NCBI GenBank assembly: GCA_041287395.1
Contig: JBEULI010000029.1
Location: 4,837 to 68,836, forward strand
Direction of reading: 5' to 3'
From: Desulfurococcaceae archaeon
GTDB lineage: Archaea > Thermoproteota > Thermoprotei_A > Sulfolobales > Desulfurococcaceae
DNA length: 64,000 nt
In this document: positions 2,169-42,153 of the stretch, one piece after another
How positions within the stretch are numbered: position 1 is the first letter of the stretch
Layout: each line of letters starts with the position of its first letter
Translations under genes and position numbers: made by a program
Notes under the pieces: model-generated
Told to the model about the DNA's origin: nothing
The model's input: the letters and a program-made list of their open reading frames with translations, nothing else
Databases searched by the model: none

Positions 2169-2981
2169 TCATTGCGCTGTTTCAGGGCCTTGGGGGAACG
2201 CGCCCGATCTGACGTCCCTGGCGTACGAGGTCACAGCGTCAACCACTAATTTCCTGAGGTCGACGTACTTCTTGGCAAACGGCGGGGGGCTCTCGGAGAG
2301 TCCTAGTACGTCGTGGAGGACGAGGATCTGGCCGTCACAGAACGGGCCGCTTCCTATGCATATAGTCGGTATCGAGACCTCCTCGGTGACCCTCTTGGCC
2401 ACCTCCCACTCAGTGAACTCGATGACTAGCGAGAACGCGCCCGCTCGCTCTAGCTCCCTTGCGTCCTCGACTATTTTTTCGGCCTCCTCGCGCTTTGTCC
2501 CCCTTTTCCTGTATCCTCCTATTAACAGCGCCCTCTGCGGGTTAAGCCCTATGTGGCCCATCACCGGTATCCCCGCCCTCGCCAGGGCCCTCACCACGTC
2601 GGACATCTCGGCTCCGCCCTCGATCTTGACCGCCTCAGCGCCGGCCCTGACGAGCGCTCCGGCGTTTCTGACGGCGTCGCTGACGTCGACCTCATAGCTT
2701 AGGAAGGGCATATCGGCCACTAGCAGTGCGGCAGTCCTCGCCCTGGCCGCGCTGCTGACGTGCAGCAGCATCATGTCCATGTTCACGTAGTTCGTGCTGG
2801 GTAACCCGTGGACGACCATGCCAACGCTGTCGCCCACCAATATCAGGTCCACTCCCGCCTCGTCGACTAGTCTGGCGGTGACGTAGTCGTACGCCGTAAT
2901 TGCTACTATTTTCTCGCGACCCTTCATCTTCACGATGTCCCGGACCGTGACCTTCTTCCTCAACTCTGCCGCCCACGTCAT
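2169..2981 (-). CDS. panB: 3-methyl-2-oxobutanoate hydroxymethyltransferase (ketopantoate hydroxymethyltransferase)
   Basis: 270 aa with ITAYDY, ILVGDSVGMVVHG, VADMPF and VKIEGG blocks typical of PanB. Confidence 0.95.
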   Translation of the reverse strand: MTWAAELRKKVTVRDIVKMKGREKIVAITAYDYVTARLVDEAGVDLILVGDSVGMVVHGLPSTNYVNMDMMLLHVSSAARARTAALLVADMPFLSYEVDVSDAVRNAGALVRAGAEAVKIEGGAEMSDVVRALARAGIPVMGHIGLNPQRALLIGGYRKRGTKREEAEKIVEDARELERAGAFSLVIEFTEWEVAKRVTEEVSIPTICIGSGPFCDGQILVLHDVLGLSESPPPFAKKYVDLRKLVVDAVTSYARDVRSGAFPQGPETAQ

Positions 2982-3065
2982 TGACGGATTTCCCTTCGTA
3001 CGTCCAAAATAAATGCAATGGCAACTTCAGCGCGTCGAAGCGCGAGGCACACTGGGCCCGTAAGC

Positions 3066-3983
3066 TCAGAGCGCTTCGAGGAGGTGCACGAGCTCTGCTA
3101 AGACCCTGTTGACGCTCCACTCCTTCCCACGTCTCCTGAGCACGCCAGCGACGAAGCCATTTATGAAGTCGATCTCCGTCCTGCGGCCGGCTAGAACGTC
3201 TTGGGCCATACTCGACAAGTTGTCGGCGGTTTGGGCAGCAGCGTCGAGCACGTGCTTGACCAGCCGATCCCTATCGAGCAGATATCCGCTGGCACTCGCC
3301 GCCTCGACGACCTCATCCACGATCGCCTCGACAAGCGCCCTGGCCCTCTCGTCGAGCACTATCTTATTCTTGGCCTTCGCTATGGCTGTGAGCGGATTTA
3401 TCACAGCATTAACCGCTAGCTTGAGCCACCTGTACAGGTCTACATCGCCCACCACCCTCACGTCGCAGCCGCCCCTCCTGAGCACCTCCGCCGCGCCGAT
3501 CAGCTCTGGCCAAGGACCTCTTGGCGAGCCGATCACCAGGGAACACGTCCCGTGAACCGCCACGTGGTCGACTGCCTTCTTCTCAGCTCCGAAGTAGACG
3601 ACGCCAGCGGCGACGTTGACGTGGGGAAGCGCCTCGGCGGCCGCCTCAAAGGCCCCGAAGCCGTTCTGTAACATCACGACGGAGGAGCGCGGGCCCGCAG
3701 ATCTCTTCATGAACTCGATCGTCGATGCGACGTCGTACGCCTTGACAGCGTTGAAGATGTGGTGGCACGAGACGTGGTGATCTGGCAGCGCTACCTCGAC
3801 GGGCACGAAGACCTCGCGGCCCTGGGCCTCGACCCTCACGTGTCTCTTTTCCCTCAGGGTCTCATACGTTCCCCTGCTTCTGACGATCAACAGAGGCGGC
3901 TCGGAGGACCCGGCGAACAGGTACATAGAGAGGGCATTCCCGACAGCTCCTGCGCCCACCACGCAGAACTCGGACGAAATCAA
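3066..3983 (-). CDS. panE: 2-dehydropantoate 2-reductase (ketopantoate reductase)
   Basis: 305 aa with an N-terminal Rossmann motif VVGAGAVGNAL, the ApbA/PanE length and a C-terminal helical domain (MAQDVLAGRRTEIDFINGFV). Lies beside panB. Confidence 0.85.
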   Translation of the reverse strand: MISSEFCVVGAGAVGNALSMYLFAGSSEPPLLIVRSRGTYETLREKRHVRVEAQGREVFVPVEVALPDHHVSCHHIFNAVKAYDVASTIEFMKRSAGPRSSVVMLQNGFGAFEAAAEALPHVNVAAGVVYFGAEKKAVDHVAVHGTCSLVIGSPRGPWPELIGAAEVLRRGGCDVRVVGDVDLYRWLKLAVNAVINPLTAIAKAKNKIVLDERARALVEAIVDEVVEAASASGYLLDRDRLVKHVLDAAAQTADNLSSMAQDVLAGRRTEIDFINGFVAGVLRRRGKEWSVNRVLAELVHLLEAL

Positions 3984-36049: not shown

Positions 36050-37225
36050 CTAGGGCTCCGGTAGCTCGCGTAGCTGGGAAAGGACGTACTCCCTTATCTC
36101 CCCAATGCTCGGCAGCCTGGCCACGAGCTTGCCCTCGTCCAGGTACTTGACTAGCATGGGCTCGTAGCCCTCGGGGCCGCGCTCGTCCCACGGGAGCACT
36201 AGGTCGTTGAGGCCGGGCCTCCTCCGGTAGAGGCGCTTGGCTCCGGGGAGCTTGCCCCTCTTGGACACGGGCCTCCAGTAGCCGTCCTCGTAGACCTCCA
36301 CTATGTCGGCGCTTATGTCAACGCTCGGGGGCATGGCGATCGAGGTCCCAACGCCGAACCCGTCGACGACGTCCCTCAGCTGCCTTATTTCCTCTTCGTC
36401 TATGCCTCCGCTCACTATGATCTTGACCCACCTGTAGCCGTTCACGTCGAGGGTCCACCTGACCTCCTCTACTATGGCCCTCATGTTCCCCCTCCTGCTG
36501 CTCGGCGTGTCCAGCCTAACCCCATCGAGCCTCCTGCCCAGGGCCTTTGCGGCCATCAGGGCCTCGACCCTCTCGTCGTAGAAGGTGTCGACGAGCATTA
36601 TGCGCGGCACATCGCCCTCGATCACCTCGTCGAAGGCCCTCCAGGCCTCGACCTGGTCGCCAAAGGCCACTATGAGTGCGTGCGGCATGGTCCCCACGGG
36701 CTTGAGGCCCAGGTACTTCGAGCTCATGTACCCCGAGACTGCGTCGCAGCCGCCTATGTACGCGGCCCTATCGACCATGGGAGCTATAAAGGGGTGGACC
36801 GCCCTTAGGCCGAAGAACAACAGCTGCTTGTCCATTGCAAGCCTCTTCAGCCTTGCGGCCTTCGTTGCTATGCTGCTTGAGTGTCTGAGCAGCCCCAGCA
36901 ACGCGGTTTCGTAAAGCACCACGTCATCGAGGTAGCCCTCGAGGACCATTAGGGGCTCCTTGGCCTTGAACAGGGTCCCCTCGGGAATGCTGTACACCGT
37001 CACCGGCTTGCCCTCGAGCAGGCGCAGCGCCTCCTCGAGGCCGGCGAAGACCGCCCACTCATAGCCCTTTGGCAAGCTCATCGCATGTAGCTCGATCCTG
37101 ACCCTTTTCCTCAGGTTCTTGGCCCTCAAGATCCTTTGCGTCCTGACGAAGTACACGTCGGTGACCACTCCCTCTAACACGTCCCTCTCGTCGGCCACGT
37201 AGAACCTGGCGCTGCTGCTACTCAC
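36050..37225 (-). CDS. pncB: nicotinate phosphoribosyltransferase
   Basis: 391 aa. [24 protein letters not shown] and [10 protein letters not shown] blocks are typical of archaeal NAPRTase. Confidence 0.85.
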
Positions 37226-37634
37226 CGATCACCACCACGTGGACTTCCCTCCTGCTCCTGGGGCCATCTAGCTCGAACAGAAATATGTTCTGCCACGTGC
37301 CCCTCACCAGCCTTCCCGAGGACACTGGGAGCACTCTCTCCTGGCCGAAGAGGGCTGAGGCCATGTGCGCGTGGGCGTTGTTGTCTATGGCGTTGTGCCT
37401 CCACTTCGCGCTTCCTGGCTCGAAGAGCTCCTCGGCCTTTCTCACGATGTCGTCCATTAACCCCTCTTCGTGTTCGTTGACCACCACGGCCGCGGTGGCG
37501 TGCGGCACAAACACCAGGGCCAGGCCCTCCCTGACGCCGCTCCTCCTGACTGCTTCCTCGACCCTTTGGGTTATGTCCACTAGCTCCATACGTTTGGACG
37601 TCTGGATCGCGAAGGACTCGTGGTACACCTTCAC
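37218..37634 (-). CDS. yjbQ: YjbQ/UPF0047 family protein (secondary thiamine-phosphate synthase-type enzyme)
   Basis: Contains [38 protein letters not shown] and [16 protein letters not shown] prefer the GTG start at 37634 to the track start at 37808. Confidence 0.8.
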
Positions 37635-37675
37635 ATCGGCTCCCCCGCCCGCGTTGTGCTTAGCTAGGCGTTTTC

Positions 37676-37688
37676 GTGCACTTATTTG
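37676..37688 (+). promoter_or_regulatory. GTGCAC hexamer abutting TATA-like TTATTT upstream of RHH gene 37726
   Basis: GTGCACTTATTTG lies ~40 nt upstream of the ATG, and GTTGTGC lies 17 nt further upstream (37653..37659). The same two motifs recur at 38852..38888. Confidence 0.35.
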
Positions 37689-37725
37689 CTCTGCTTCCCA
37701 GGCTAATGGCGTGGGTAAGGGGTCG

Positions 37726-38313
37726 ATGTCGTCGGCCAGGAGGAAGACGTTCGCGGCGAGGGAGGATCTAATAGACGCTGTGAAGGGAATAGCGAAGTCC
37801 AAGGGCAAGAGCCTTTACGACTACGTCAACGAGCTCTTCGAGTCAGCGATAGAGCTGGAGAGGGCCGGGGGGAGCCTCAAGGAGGCCGTCGAGGGCTACG
37901 CGCTGCTCAAGGAGGCAAGGGACGCGGGCCTCGTGCTAGTGCCTGAGGTGCTCCTCTACGGGATAATTGACGCAGTTGCACAGGGAGGGGAGCTCGGAAA
38001 GGTGTTCCACGACGCAGGCGTCTGGCTGTCGACGAGGTACGTGGCCAGATATGGGCAGGACGCATTCGAGAGAATGGCCAGGGAGCTCCCCAGGGCCCTC
38101 TGGAACTACGCCGGCCTGAGGCTGGAGAACCGGGGCGACAAGTTGTTGGTGGAGTTCGTGGCGCCGCGCCTCGGGGAGCGATATGTCGCGCTTTTCAATT
38201 CGTTCTTCGAAGGCATAATGGAGGGCCTCGGCTACGAGGTCGTGGAGAGGAAGATAGTGGGAAGGATATCGAGGCTCACGGGTGTCCGCCGTGCCCGAGG
38301 GCCAGTCGAGTAG
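37726..38313 (+). CDS. ribbon-helix-helix (CopG/Arc-like) domain protein, paralogue 1
   Basis: I prefer the ATG at 37726, because the upstream part of the track ORF is antisense to yjbQ. The N-terminus RKTFAAREDLIDAVKGIAKSKGKSLYDYVNELFESAIE fits a strand-helix-helix pattern. A ~140-aa C-terminal domain follows. Confidence 0.55.
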   Translation: MSSARRKTFAAREDLIDAVKGIAKSKGKSLYDYVNELFESAIELERAGGSLKEAVEGYALLKEARDAGLVLVPEVLLYGIIDAVAQGGELGKVFHDAGVWLSTRYVARYGQDAFERMARELPRALWNYAGLRLENRGDKLLVEFVAPRLGERYVALFNSFFEGIMEGLGYEVVERKIVGRISRLTGVRRARGPVE

Positions 38314-38845
38314 GAAGCTAGTCTACGTCTCGGAGGAGCTCCTCGGCAGGGCCTCCAGGGTCGCCGCCAGGAAGGGGCTATCGGTGTCCAAGCTCGTCGA
38401 GAAGGCCCTGCAGACAGCGCTTAGGCTCGAAGAGCTTGGCTACGACTTCGAGAGGGTCCCGGAGATCCTCGAGCTCATGGAAATGGAGAGGAAGCTGGGC
38501 TCGTTGTGGATGCCGGCCGAGCTGGCAGATCTCCAGTGCATCAGCAACGAGGAGGCGTGGAGGAGGAGCGGGATCGCGCACGGGATCTACATGAGGGAGC
38601 GCCTGAAGGATCCGCTCAGGGCGCTGGCAGCGCTCCTCGGCCTCCTGAGGTGGGATCTGAGCGAGGTCAAGATCGAGGAGGAGGGAGGGGCGGCGAAGGC
38701 CCTCCTGGTCTCGGCAGTGCTCGACGAGGGCTCCCTCGCGTCTCTCGCCTCCTTTGTCGAGGGCGCGCTACAGGCTCTCGGGTACAGTTGCGGGGAGCGC
38801 AGGATATACAGGGGGCTGGCGCTCCTCACTTGTAAGAAGGCCTAG
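38282..38845 (+). CDS. ribbon-helix-helix domain protein, paralogue 2
   Basis: The N-terminus RKLVYVSEELLGRASRVAARKGLSVSKLVEKALQTAL fits RHH. The architecture matches the upstream gene, with which it overlaps by 32 nt. Confidence 0.55.
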   Translation: MSAVPEGQSSRKLVYVSEELLGRASRVAARKGLSVSKLVEKALQTALRLEELGYDFERVPEILELMEMERKLGSLWMPAELADLQCISNEEAWRRSGIAHGIYMRERLKDPLRALAALLGLLRWDLSEVKIEEEGGAAKALLVSAVLDEGSLASLASFVEGALQALGYSCGERRIYRGLALLTCKKA

Positions 38846-38851
38846 GCGCAA

Positions 38852-38888
38852 GTGCACAGGCCCTCCTTGGCAGGAGGGCGTTGTGCAC
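38852..38888. promoter_or_regulatory. 37-nt imperfect palindrome/hairpin (operator or terminator) just upstream of the envelope-protein promoter
   Basis: GTGCACAGGCCCTCC-TTGGCA-GGAGGGCGTTGTGCAC gives about 14 bp of pairing with one small bulge. It ends 6 nt before the TATA-like TTAAAA. Confidence 0.5.
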
Positions 38889-38894
38889 GCACCC

Positions 38895-38900
38895 TTAAAA
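38895..38900 (+). promoter_or_regulatory. TATA-like box (TTAAAA) for 38914/38929 start
   Basis: Its 3' end is 13 nt (TTG 38914) or 28 nt (GTG 38929) upstream of the candidate starts; the latter spacing suits a leaderless transcript. Confidence 0.45.
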
Positions 38901-38913
38901 CCAGTCCCCCCAT

Positions 38914-41900
38914 TTGAGCCTAGGACAGGTGAACGTATTGGACTGGAGGAAAGTCCAGGCGACGATCGCGTCACTCGCCCTACTCGCCCTATTCCTGGCC
39001 GTAGCGCCCGTTACGTTGGCGGGCGTCACAGGCAACCTGCAGCTGACTGCTAGCACCACCACCGGCTCCCCCGGCGATGCCGTCACCGTCAGCGGCGTCG
39101 TACCGCTGGGCTACAGCGTCAACGTCTCCTTCATCCAGTGGGTCGACTACAGCACCTATGCCTACACGGTGCTCGCCACCCAGCTGGTCCCCGTGGGAGC
39201 CCAGGGCAGGTTCTCGACGACCCTCATAATACCCAAGGCCCCCTACGGCAGCAACTACGCCATCTATGCGTTCGTTCCCGGCTTCGAGTCGCAGACCAGG
39301 GACTTCGTGAACTTCACGATAGTCCCCAAGCTGATACTCAACGTCACCACCGTCAGGTCCGGCACTGACTACGTGACCCCGCCCATTACCGGCTCAATAG
39401 TTAACATAACTGGCGTCGGCTTCAACGCCAACGCTTCGGTGATGTTGACGATAGCGGATCTAGGCGTACAGCTCCCACTGACGCCGACCACCGATTCCAC
39501 GGGCACCTTCACAGCCACTTGGACGGTCATCAACGTGCCGGCCGGGACGCACATACTAACTGCGACAGACTCGTTGGGAGCTAAGGCTTCCACCAACTTC
39601 ACCGTCGTTCCAACGCTGTGGTTCTATGACGAGGTCAATGGCGTTTGGACTTCACTGCTGACTGTGTCCGGGCCCTGGGTTAGGGACCTCGAGGAGAACA
39701 TAAAGTCCTTAAATGTCCTGGGCACTGGCTTTGATGCCAAAGTCAGCATAGTCGCCATAACCTTCAGCAACACCTATTACTACTACAAGACCAACGTCAG
39801 CTTCACCAGTCCCACGTTCACTGACGCTAACGGCATATTCATGACGTACCTCTCGATCGGCCACATACCGGGCGGCACCTACAACGTGACCGTGACCGAG
39901 AACACCAGCGCCTCGTACGTGTTTGCGGGAGCCATAACGTTCAACGCGTACATCGAGGCATACGACTTCGCCAAGTATAGCGCCCTGTACGGCACGGCCT
40001 ACAACGTGAGTGCCGCCAGCAACCCCGCGCTGAAGGTCACCAGCGCCGGCGCCCAGGTGATAGTGTTCGGCTGGGCCTTTGCGCCTGGCACCATAACGAC
40101 GCCGGCTGGCAACGTCACCGTGCCCGCCCACATATTCATTGACGTCGACGTGCCAGAAAACGCCCTAACCATTTACAAGGTCGTTAAAGGCACTCAGATT
40201 GACCAGTACAACTTCCTGCCCGACGCCAATGGCTTCAACGTCGTGATAGCGCTAATGCCGTCGCAAATTGTCAGGGGAGGCCACGAGATCGGCGAGACCC
40301 AGAACATAACGGCGCCCGTGCAGCTGAGGTTCAGCGCCAGGACCAACATAGCCGTTGGACCGGCTGCCTTCTTCACGCCGCCCGCGGGCACCGTCGGGCC
40401 CTACACCACGATAGCCTACACCTATAACGGAATCGGCGTCGTCAAGGGCAGCTACGCTGGGCCCTTCTTCTGCATTAACTACGGCACGACCGTCTGCGGA
40501 GAGAGCGTCACGTTCACGAGCGACCAGATAAAGTTACTGCAGACCGGCCTGGGCACCACGATAACTGTCAGCGGCACTGGCTTCGACGCCGGGCAGCCGG
40601 TGATGGTGTTCATAAGGGGAGTGCCGCCCGTTGACCTGAGGGTGCTCTACCCGCAGTACTTCGCAACCTATGGCAGCTTGCTGGCGAGCTTCCTGCCCGA
40701 CGGCATACTGGTCGCTAACACCACCACGGACTCCTACGGCAGCTTCAAGGTCAGCTTTGTGTTCCCAACGCTCCCCGGCGCCCAGTACGAGATCTGGGTC
40801 TTCGTTGGCAGGATCGCGGGAGGCTACGACCAGGTCAAGGCGGTGTACATGGGCAACGTCAGCGTAACCACGTTCACGGTGTTGCCGGGCTTCTTCGTCA
40901 ACCCAGCGGTTGCTGTAGGGCCCTACGTCGCTGAGGTCATCGCGACCGGCCTGCCCTACGGAGCTGCTGGGGGAGTCGCCGGTGTCGCGATCAGGACCAC
41001 AGCCCTCGATGGGACGCAGTACAGGCAGGACCTCAACGACGGCATAATGGGCGTTAACATGCACGTCACCAACTGGAGGATAACGCCGAACGGCACCCTG
41101 GTCGACGTGCTCTCGCCCTACGTGTTCCCAGGCATCTACATACCGGTGCTTGAGCCGGGCGTGTACGAGCTCAGGCTGATAATGCCCGATGGCAGCCTGT
41201 CGCAGCCCACGTACATCGGAATATTCAACAACCTGAGCCTCGTCGCGATCAAGAGCGACATAGCGATACTGCAGGCCGGCCAGAACACCATACTGATGCA
41301 GCTTGCTTCCATGAACGCCGAGATAAGGGCCATACACGGGGACACGGTCACGATAAGCTCCACAGTCGGCACGATAAAGGCCACGCTGGATGCCTTGAAG
41401 GCCAACATAGCTAGCATAAGTGATGGCATTGTCACGATCACTACAGCGCTCGGCCAGATCAACGGCACCCTGGTCTCGATAAGCGGCGACGTTGCAACGA
41501 TCAAGACGTCCATGGGAACGCTGAACGCCAGCATCAACAGCCTGTCGCAGAGCGTGTCGGCCGTCAACAGCATGGTCAACACGCTCAGCAGCTCCGTCAA
41601 CGAACTGAGCGCTAAGCTCAGCACCGTCGAGGCCGACATCATCAACAACATAACGGGCTCCGTGAACTACGCGATCTCGCAGCTCAACAGCGCCATGAAG
41701 TCCGGATTCGAGGGCCTGAGCGGCCAGATATCGTCGACTTCCAACGCGCTCAGCGGCCAGATATCCAGCGCTGCCAACAGCCTGAGCAGCCAGATCAGCA
41801 GCGTGCAGGGCTCCGTTAGCACCGTCAGCAACTACGTCATCGTCGCCATAATAATAGCGGCGATCGCCGCCGCTGCCGCGCTCTACGAGATCGTGTTGCT

Positions 41901-41922
41901 ACACAGGAAGCTCGCTGGCTAA
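38914..41922 (+). CDS. large envelope (S-layer-type) glycoprotein: signal peptide, beta-rich ectodomains, long Ser/Ile/Asn/Leu-rich coiled-coil stalk, C-terminal TM anchor (SlaB/tetrabrachion-like architecture)
   Basis: 1002 aa. N-terminus IASLALLALFLAVAPVTLAG. About 20 N-x-S/T sequons by eye. Residues ~770-970 show heptad/hendecad-patterned repeats. The C-terminus is YVIVAIIIAAIAAAAALYEIVLLHRKLAG. Confidence 0.75.
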   Translation: MSLGQVNVLDWRKVQATIASLALLALFLAVAPVTLAGVTGNLQLTASTTTGSPGDAVTVSGVVPLGYSVNVSFIQWVDYSTYAYTVLATQLVPVGAQGRFSTTLIIPKAPYGSNYAIYAFVPGFESQTRDFVNFTIVPKLILNVTTVRSGTDYVTPPITGSIVNITGVGFNANASVMLTIADLGVQLPLTPTTDSTGTFTATWTVINVPAGTHILTATDSLGAKASTNFTVVPTLWFYDEVNGVWTSLLTVSGPWVRDLEENIKSLNVLGTGFDAKVSIVAITFSNTYYYYKTNVSFTSPTFTDANGIFMTYLSIGHIPGGTYNVTVTENTSASYVFAGAITFNAYIEAYDFAKYSALYGTAYNVSAASNPALKVTSAGAQVIVFGWAFAPGTITTPAGNVTVPAHIFIDVDVPENALTIYKVVKGTQIDQYNFLPDANGFNVVIALMPSQIVRGGHEIGETQNITAPVQLRFSARTNIAVGPAAFFTPPAGTVGPYTTIAYTYNGIGVVKGSYAGPFFCINYGTTVCGESVTFTSDQIKLLQTGLGTTITVSGTGFDAGQPVMVFIRGVPPVDLRVLYPQYFATYGSLLASFLPDGILVANTTTDSYGSFKVSFVFPTLPGAQYEIWVFVGRIAGGYDQVKAVYMGNVSVTTFTVLPGFFVNPAVAVGPYVAEVIATGLPYGAAGGVAGVAIRTTALDGTQYRQDLNDGIMGVNMHVTNWRITPNGTLVDVLSPYVFPGIYIPVLEPGVYELRLIMPDGSLSQPTYIGIFNNLSLVAIKSDIAILQAGQNTILMQLASMNAEIRAIHGDTVTISSTVGTIKATLDALKANIASISDGIVTITTALGQINGTLVSISGDVATIKTSMGTLNASINSLSQSVSAVNSMVNTLSSSVNELSAKLSTVEADIINNITGSVNYAISQLNSAMKSGFEGLSGQISSTSNALSGQISSAANSLSSQISSVQGSVSTVSNYVIVAIIIAAIAAAAALYEIVLLHRKLAG
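41716..41814 (+). repeat. 3 x 33-nt tandem repeat encoding 11-residue units (LSGQISSTSNA / LSGQISSAANS / LSSQISSVQGS)
   Basis: The direct tandem copies are visible at both nucleotide and protein level inside the stalk region of the envelope gene. Confidence 0.8.
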
Positions 41923-42064: not shown

Positions 42065-42153
42065 GGGCCCGTCGTCTAGCCTGGTTAGGACGCCGCCCTT
42101 ACAAGCCCGGCTGGGAGAGGCGGAGGTCCGGGGTTCGAGTCCCCGCGGGCCCA
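42065..42153 (+). tRNA. tRNA-Val (anticodon UAC) with 14-nt intron 3' of position 37
   Basis: Hand fold: acceptor GGGCCCG/CGGGCCC, D arm GTCT..GGAC, anticodon stem CCGCC/GGCGG with loop CTTACAA interrupted by a 14-nt insert, T arm CGGGG-TTCGAGT-CCCCG, discriminator A. No CCA is encoded. Confidence 0.9.

Follow-up and report, generated by a model that had tools for sequence, protein, structure and literature searches.

The window, a 64,000-nucleotide stretch of a Desulfurococcaceae archaeon genome (assembly GCA_041287395.1, contig JBEULI010000029.1; the whole genome comprises 1.30 Mb of 61% GC DNA in 47 contigs), carries two overlapping plus-strand genes just upstream of a gene encoding a surface-layer (S-layer) type glycoprotein, and the relationship between this gene pair and the promoter of the S-layer gene is the subject of the present analysis. 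The first gene, RHH-A (protein P0001), occupies positions 37726 to 38313 and encodes 195 amino acids, and the second, RHH-B (P0002), occupies positions 38282 to 38845 and encodes 187 amino acids. The RHH-B start lies within the end of RHH-A, and the resulting 32-nt overlap of the two reading frames suggests translational coupling. Because RHH-A and RHH-B align from end to end (24% identity, E=1e-9), they are true paralogues, each consisting of a ribbon-helix-helix (RHH) head followed by a C-terminal alpha/beta domain of about 130 amino acids, as the initial annotation had described when it reported two overlapping genes of the same architecture. Among genomes that carry the same locus, the closest relatives of this archaeon are Thermogladius and Desulfurococcus (genera g10 and g13 of the Desulfurococcaceae).

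The head of RHH-A consists of the strand RKTFAARE, followed by EDLIDAVKGIAKSK, the turn GKS and LYDYVNELFESAIE, and that of RHH-B consists of the strand KLVYVSE, followed by ELLGRASRVAARK, the turn GLS and VSKLVEKALQTAL. Both have the beta-strand, helix, G-x-S turn and second helix that match the strand/helix/G-x-(S/T/N)/helix order of the RHH superfamily, and the glycine of the turn is invariant or nearly so in the family alignments (A2 and A4). AlphaFold2 monomer models of the two proteins are confident, with mean local confidence scores (pLDDT) of 83 for RHH-A and 88 for RHH-B, and each contains the two RHH helices, three more helices, a long helix and a beta-beta-alpha-beta-beta unit. Among the relatives, 30 members of the RHH-B family include 7 that match Pfam RHH_1, at E=1.9e-5 in the best case, and others that match RHH_3, RHH_4 or RHH_5. 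The earlier reading of the N-terminal strand-helix-helix segment as an RHH domain is therefore upheld by the paralogous heads, the turn, the modelled helices and the profile matches among relatives.

The C-terminal domain is less readily placed. Foldseek comparison with the Protein Data Bank (PDB) returned BcsD/CesD, the TRAPP subunits TPC6/Bet3, and H-NOX, at TM-scores of 0.35-0.51, and weak HNOB Pfam matches (E=0.003) were found in two of the 30 family members. Pfam V4R (PF02830) has no match anywhere in the genome at E<=10, a search of PDB sequences with an RHH-A profile gave nothing below E=0.29, and the window proteins have no NikR match in Pfam or NCBIfam. From the models, the domain would best be said to resemble a Bet3/H-NOX-like alpha/beta fold, its family being unproven. 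In alignment A4, most members of the RHH-B family have a cysteine in the first strand of this domain (R-C-V-S), near residue 143 of P0002, where the window protein has leucine (L-L-V-S); judged from the alignment, that cysteine may mark a site for a ligand or for redox chemistry, lost in the window protein.

Downstream of the pair, the S-layer-type gene (plus strand, 38914 to 41922) is an open reading frame of 1002 amino acids when read from TTG 38914. Its start is more likely to be GTG 38929 or TTG 38938, the latter being preceded by the Shine-Dalgarno-like sequence AGGTGA and giving the best fit to the Thermogladius N-terminus. The protein combines a signal peptide and a beta-rich body with a coiled-coil stalk and a C-terminal transmembrane segment ending in HRKLAG, and its Thermogladius orthologues are 62-65% identical to it. 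Its C-terminal stalk and anchor match PDB chain 8qox_B (475 amino acids, 'conserved membrane protein'; E=3.6e-4), which we take from its length to be S. acidocaldarius SlaB.

Between RHH-B and the TATA box of the S-layer gene (TTAAAA, plus strand, 38895 to 38900) lies a 37-nt palindrome, GTGCACAGGCCCTCC-TTGGCA-GGAGGGCGTTGTGCAC, spanning 38852 to 38888 and ending 6 nt before the TATA box. When folded as RNA it has a predicted energy of -32.7 kcal/mol (z=-3.7), the third most stable among 465 gene 3' flanks in the genome (mean -15.5), so that the sequence, position and stable fold of this element, all noted in the initial annotation, are borne out. The outermost parts of the palindrome form two short palindromic boxes, both predicted operators: a distal box of the TGTNNACA type, AGTGCACA, at 38851 to 38858, which begins 5 nt past the RHH-B stop codon, and a proximal box, TGTGCACG, at 38882 to 38889, which ends 5 nt upstream of the TATA box. 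The spacer between them (38859 to 38881) holds a lineage-specific inner palindrome made up of GGCCCTCC (38859-38866) and GGAGGGC (38873-38879). Alignment of this intergenic stretch with its orthologue in four Thermogladius genomes (46-57% GC), where the distal box reads (T/C)GTGCACAGG, yields the core (T/C/A)GTGCACAGG-N22-TTGTG(C/T)ACGCACC(C/T)TTAAAA, in which the portion from TTGTG to the TATA box is invariant across g1, the genus of the window, and g10, and the distance from GTGCAC to GTGCAC is exactly 31 bp in all five genomes. The inner 8-bp GC stem of the window is replaced in Thermogladius by GGATCTAATGATCGG (GGATCTAATGATCGGTTTAGG), with its length kept. There is no run of four or more T between 38846 and 38894. 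Rfam gave no match to the palindrome; its only match was a tRNA gene (42065-42153, 53.9 bits) directly after the S-layer gene, whose 89-nt span suggests an intron, and in Thermogladius a stretch that on visual inspection resembles a tRNA gene instead immediately precedes RHH-A.

The pair belongs to a family that has so far escaped annotation. Searched exhaustively with a profile, 1.84 billion representative proteins yielded only 369 clusters (50% identity), and all of the named members are annotated 'hypothetical protein' without a Pfam domain. Of the 22 genera of the family Desulfurococcaceae, a profile search found the pair in 5, the two genes standing side by side in every case. When S-layer-type genes are defined as those encoding large secreted proteins with a C-terminal transmembrane segment ending in RK(I/L)AG, and with simple open reading frame calls used for the compared loci, the pair adjoins such genes in g1, Thermogladius, g8, Desulfurococcus and g16, in other families of the order, in many metagenome-assembled genomes (MAGs) of Bathyarchaeia and in one Nezhaarchaeales MAG, RHH-A being 31-41% identical in the Bathyarchaeia and Nezhaarchaeales. 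The arrangement of the neighbours varies: the pair and the S-layer-type gene share a strand in the window and Thermogladius, where the pair lies upstream, and in part of genus g8, where it lies downstream; the two are divergent in the remaining g8 and Desulfurococcus, and convergent in g16. In Desulfurococcus (loci L059-L061 and L114), the divergent partner is a pair of S-layer genes of 1285-1298 and 900-940 amino acids, with a conserved GAAAACTTATATATT at the S-layer promoter.

Regardless of lineage, the two paralogous genes overlap or abut, and in some archaea two such modules stand in a single gene. Natural single-chain fusions of 370-426 amino acids, comprising two complete modules of RHH head plus C-terminal domain, occur on contigs of up to 175 kb; examples in AT-rich archaeal contigs (31-36% GC) are found at 2494-3774 of locus L115, 6001-7266 of L116, and 296-1558 and 2772-3992 of L117. 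Together, the overlapping or abutting genes and the natural two-module fusions suggest, from gene organisation, that the two paralogues act as one complex, and a fused tandem, given that two chains make up an RHH ribbon, would form an intramolecular pseudo-dimer. The fused paralogues sometimes stand two to three in a row, and a gene for an ArsA/Get3-like ATPase adjoins them in L116-L118. In L115, the fused gene is preceded by TGTTTACA, which stands 6 nt ahead of a TATA-like box.

Boxes like those of the window recur across these lineages. Most promoters of S-layer-type genes that adjoin the pair contain 8-bp palindromes of the form TGTNNACA, including the variants TGTGCACA, TGTATACA, TGTAGACA and TGTTTACA. 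Within 140 nt upstream of 28 S-layer-type genes, 23 exact TGTNNACA boxes were found, when about 1.3 would be expected over 28 x 140 nt from a background of 0.34 per kb in 697 kb of loci, and all 23 are at genes that stand beside a pair. In genera that have no pair, there is no box at any of five sampled S-layer-type promoters (g4, g5 twice, g7 and g17). The boxes occur in arrays phased at 30-33 bp, and the proximal box is positioned 5-6 nt before the TATA box in at least eight lineages: g1 (the window), Thermogladius, g8a, g8b, f5 (genome G040), Bathyarchaeia clades A and B, and L087. Those eight lineages share the geometry of archaeal upstream-activator sites, that is, a site directly upstream of the transcription factor B recognition element (BRE) and TATA box at a fixed distance. 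The promoter of Bathyarchaeia clade B, for instance, carries TGTGCACA, a second TGTGCACA and TGTG(A/G)ACA-N5-TATATAT.

The central bases of the box, moreover, vary in step with the protein. Position 4 of the box is G (TGTGCACA) where the RHH-A strand reads RKTF(A/V)ARE (g1, g10, Bathyarchaeia clade B and L084), and A or T (TGTATACA, TGTTTACA and TGTAGACA) where the strand reads RK(M/V/A/S)L (g8a, f5, Bathyarchaeia clade A and L087). This is a perfect 4:4 split, with p ~0.014 if the eight lineages are treated as independent, no phylogenetic correction being applied. In the window genome, only two sites have two boxes (at most one mismatch to TGTGCACA) spaced 28-35 bp apart, against 0.17 expected, and the S-layer promoter is one of them.

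The other paired site lies outside the window, on another contig, at C45:29941-29979, in the divergent promoter of an operon for a Znu-like ABC transporter that ends in a NikR-like RHH gene (C45:27632-30790; binding protein, permease, NikR-like RHH gene and divergent ATPase, with related loci L103, L106 and L127-L129). Here the boxes take the form TTGTGCAC-N25/26-TTGTGCACAA, with 33-34 bp spacing and a TATA-like sequence between or beside them. To judge from its conservation together with the regulator gene, an archaeal metal regulator of the NikR-like kind very probably uses this sequence as its operator. The NikR-like protein itself is present in 20 of 22 genera.

The promoter of the pair is a different matter. 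The initial annotation had held that GTTGTGC and GTGCAC motifs are shared by this promoter and that of the envelope gene, and the motifs are indeed present in the divergent promoter region (37635 to 37725) between a yjbQ-like gene and RHH-A: GCGTTGTGC at 37651-37659, containing GTTGTGC at 37653-37659, and GTGCAC at 37676-37681, abutting the TATA-like TTATTT at 37682-37687, their role as an operator being putative. The resemblance to the proximal S-layer box comes down to the shared 9-mer GCGTTGTGC and the separate GTGCAC, and is equalled by only 5 of 1657 intergenic 91-nt windows of the genome (0.3%). The motifs are absent upstream of the RHH-A orthologues in Thermogladius, and upstream of the first gene in 29 loci there are no exact TGTNNACA boxes, with one-mismatch boxes at or below background. 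Counted genome-wide, GTGCAC occurs 304 times, at 0.85x expectation in intergenic DNA, and GTTGTGC 96 times, at 1.05x, so that neither is enriched at promoters and both are ruled out as general promoter motifs. Autoregulation through a shared motif thus finds no conservation, and on present sequence it is possible in the lineage of the window. The earlier observation is, from the comparative evidence, real and strengthened at the S-layer promoter, and its own-promoter claim is weak. On the other side of this region, the YjbQ/UPF0047-like gene (37218-37634, minus strand) was called as an over-extended reading frame of 37218-37808; its likely start is GTG 37634 (139 amino acids), leaving a 91-bp divergent promoter shared with RHH-A.

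Taken together, these features make it reasonably probable that the RHH pair is a hetero-oligomeric, and probably ligand-sensing, regulator dedicated to the S-layer gene. RHH-A and RHH-B would be co-expressed and assemble into a hetero-oligomer in which each beta-ribbon is contributed by two chains. The complex would bind AGTGCACA and TGTGCACG, 31 bp or three helical turns apart and just upstream of the S-layer BRE and TATA box, and binding at the two boxes would control S-layer transcription. The C-terminal domains probably oligomerise, so that two heads could bridge both boxes in the manner of NikR, and a small ligand, possibly hydrophobic, may in addition bind to them and adjust the activity. 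What the comparison shows is the paralogy, the fold, the conserved operator, the synteny, the joint occurrence of boxes and pair, and their co-variation; DNA binding by the pair, formation of the heteromer, ligand sensing and the direction of regulation are all steps that we infer. As to direction, the proximal box may contact or recruit TFB/TBP and so activate transcription, an outcome narrowly favoured in this analysis over repression because lineages that are only very distantly related all place the box 5-6 nt from the TATA box. Repression by occlusion is plausible, since the proximal box reaches the BRE position. An argument from BRE strength was dropped, as the BRE profile drawn roughly from the whole genome did not have the power to decide it. 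The suggestion of the initial annotation that the pair gates expression of the envelope gene accordingly survives in part: the link itself is supported by gene neighbourhood, by co-occurrence of boxes and pair, and by co-variation, whereas the motif has been revised to TGTNNACA arrays and the geometry fits activator sites at least as well as BRE occlusion.

Several observations weigh against a dedicated S-layer regulator. The window proteins score only 16-18 bits against Pfam RHH profiles (RHH_5 and DUF6364), below the cut-offs of 26-27, and the fold matches of the C-terminal domain are weak. The numbers of lineages behind the box comparisons are small and not phylogenetically corrected. In Desulfurococcus the pair stands beside S-layer genes, yet the promoters examined have no clear TGTNNACA boxes. 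The TGTGCAC-N25/26-TGTGCAC operator and its NikR-like gene are conserved together in the window genome, Thermogladius and g8, and since the two RHH regulators of g1 and g10 appear to share nearly the same core, the S-layer boxes of these genera could be recognised by a second RHH protein. The last point leads to an alternative in which the NikR-like metal regulator binds the GTGCAC boxes of the S-layer promoter in the window genome and Thermogladius, the S-layer is under metal control and the pair does something else. The near-identity of TTGTGCAC-N25-TTGTGCACAA at the Znu-like promoter, conserved with the gene in all three genera, speaks for such an arrangement, but the boxes of the ABC promoter are spaced at 33-34 bp and those of the S-layer promoter at 31 bp, and g8 retains TGTGCACA (GC) in its ABC operator while its S-layer boxes are TGTATACA or TGTAGACA (AT or AG). 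The wide distribution of the NikR-like protein, moreover, includes genera with box-less S-layer-type promoters, whereas the S-layer boxes follow the distribution of the RHH pair and vary in step with the RHH-A strand, and metal control of this kind is accordingly judged decidedly unlikely. Somewhat less improbable, though still unlikely, is the full model of the initial annotation, a classical auto-repressor that binds GTTGTGC/GTGCAC at its own promoter and also occludes the S-layer BRE and TATA box. Its attractions are the rarity of the own-promoter resemblance, the GTGCAC that abuts the TATA-like sequence there and the reach of the proximal S-layer box into the BRE position; what it has to contend with is the absence of the own-promoter motifs in Thermogladius, the lack of box enrichment before the first gene in 29 loci and the very high expression that an S-layer gene must have. 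A fixed position upstream is, in addition, typical of activators such as TFB-RF1 (PMC5937170).

Two further explanations were weighed. The rigid distance between TGTNNACA and TATA resembles an extension of the core promoter, and TGTNNACA-N5-TATA could be an upstream element of strong envelope promoters, read by a TFB paralogue, some other abundant protein or a comparable general factor, leaving the pair to regulate other genes or to act outside transcription. That the element also precedes the gene of a fused family member (L115) and occurs at the NikR-like operon fits this proposal; its absence from sampled S-layer-type promoters of genera that lack the pair, the restriction of paired sites to two in the genome and the co-variation of the central bases with the RHH-A strand do not, and it is considered very unlikely. 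Least probable of all, to the point of being remote, is that the palindrome acts mainly as RNA, its hairpin ending or stabilising the RHH-A/RHH-B transcript. Its predicted fold ranks in the top three of the 465 3' flanks, it begins 6 nt after a stop codon, and where two of the Thermogladius genomes have T in place of C, a G-U pair would still form. Intrinsic terminators of archaea rely on oligo-T, but no T-run follows the palindrome; stable hairpins are not general in the 3' flanks of this genome, and the same boxes at the same distance from TATA are found at loci that have no preceding gene on that strand (in a divergent layout and in one with a 960-nt intergenic region). Because the outer boxes are kept without compensatory change and their spacing is kept, while the inner 8-bp stem is not and no T-run is present, the functional part of the palindrome is, as read from this comparison, its two outer boxes, an operator recognised as DNA by protein and not a terminator, and the caveat of the initial annotation that the palindrome could simply be a terminator is set aside.

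The regulator proposed here combines features of several known systems. Like NikR, a tetramer that bridges two operator half-sites, it would join an N-terminal RHH head to a C-terminal domain for oligomerisation or sensing, bind paired sites whole helical turns apart and be encoded beside its target. Unlike NikR, it has neither an ACT-like C-terminal domain nor a conserved metal site of His/Cys residues in that domain (the fold search returned BcsD, Bet3 and H-NOX, not NikR), two paralogous chains or a two-module fusion take the place of the homotetramer, and the boxes, spaced 30-33 bp apart, precede the TATA box of a gene for a structural envelope protein. The reading of short palindromes by a beta-ribbon would be shared with CopG, Arc and MetJ, and the 8-bp palindromic box resembles the MetJ met-box. 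Those proteins have 45-105 amino acids and are usually auto-repressors that overlap their promoters, whereas the members of the pair have about 190 amino acids, an extra domain and no conserved autoregulatory site. For the C-terminal domain only, there is a likeness to V4R, TRAPP-Bet3, H-NOX and BcsD in the succession of a long helix and a beta-beta-alpha-beta-beta unit, although the TM-scores are low and no Pfam V4R match exists in the genome.

In its promoter geometry, the system is like archaeal activators. A repressor need only overlap its promoter. The fixed distance between box and TATA across phylum-level divergence resembles the sites of activators. TFB-RF1 (PF1088), Ptr2, EarA and GvpE likewise act from a site immediately upstream of the BRE and TATA box, at a fixed distance and at a dedicated target promoter (PMC5937170, PMC5512572, PMC2241852), and TFB-RF1 is reported to recruit TFB at promoters with a weak BRE (PMC5937170). 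These activators have winged helix-turn-helix, Lrp and other folds, in contrast to the RHH fold of the pair, for which activation is the favoured but conditional reading.

S-layer proteins are among the most abundant archaeal proteins, and a literature search, which was not exhaustive, found no description of this family and no dedicated archaeal S-layer transcription factor. What the comparison defines is an unannotated protein family with an obligate two-paralogue organisation that includes natural fusions, a conserved grammar of boxes and a strand position that would determine specificity, together with an S-layer regulon set apart from the look-alike NikR-type operator of the same genomes. 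An extended version of the proposal, distinctly speculative and held to be improbable, is that the pair is an ancient regulator that links the envelope to metabolism and predates the split between Thermoproteia and Bathyarchaeia, a hetero-tetramer whose Bet3/V4R/H-NOX-like domains respond to some hydrophobic precursor of the envelope, such as a membrane isoprenoid or a glycan linked to dolichol, and which recruits TFB to the S-layer promoter from two boxes, three helical turns apart, when new subunits can be glycosylated and anchored. If that were true, the pair would be the first dedicated archaeal S-layer transcription factor and would represent a new class of sensor domain carried on an RHH head.

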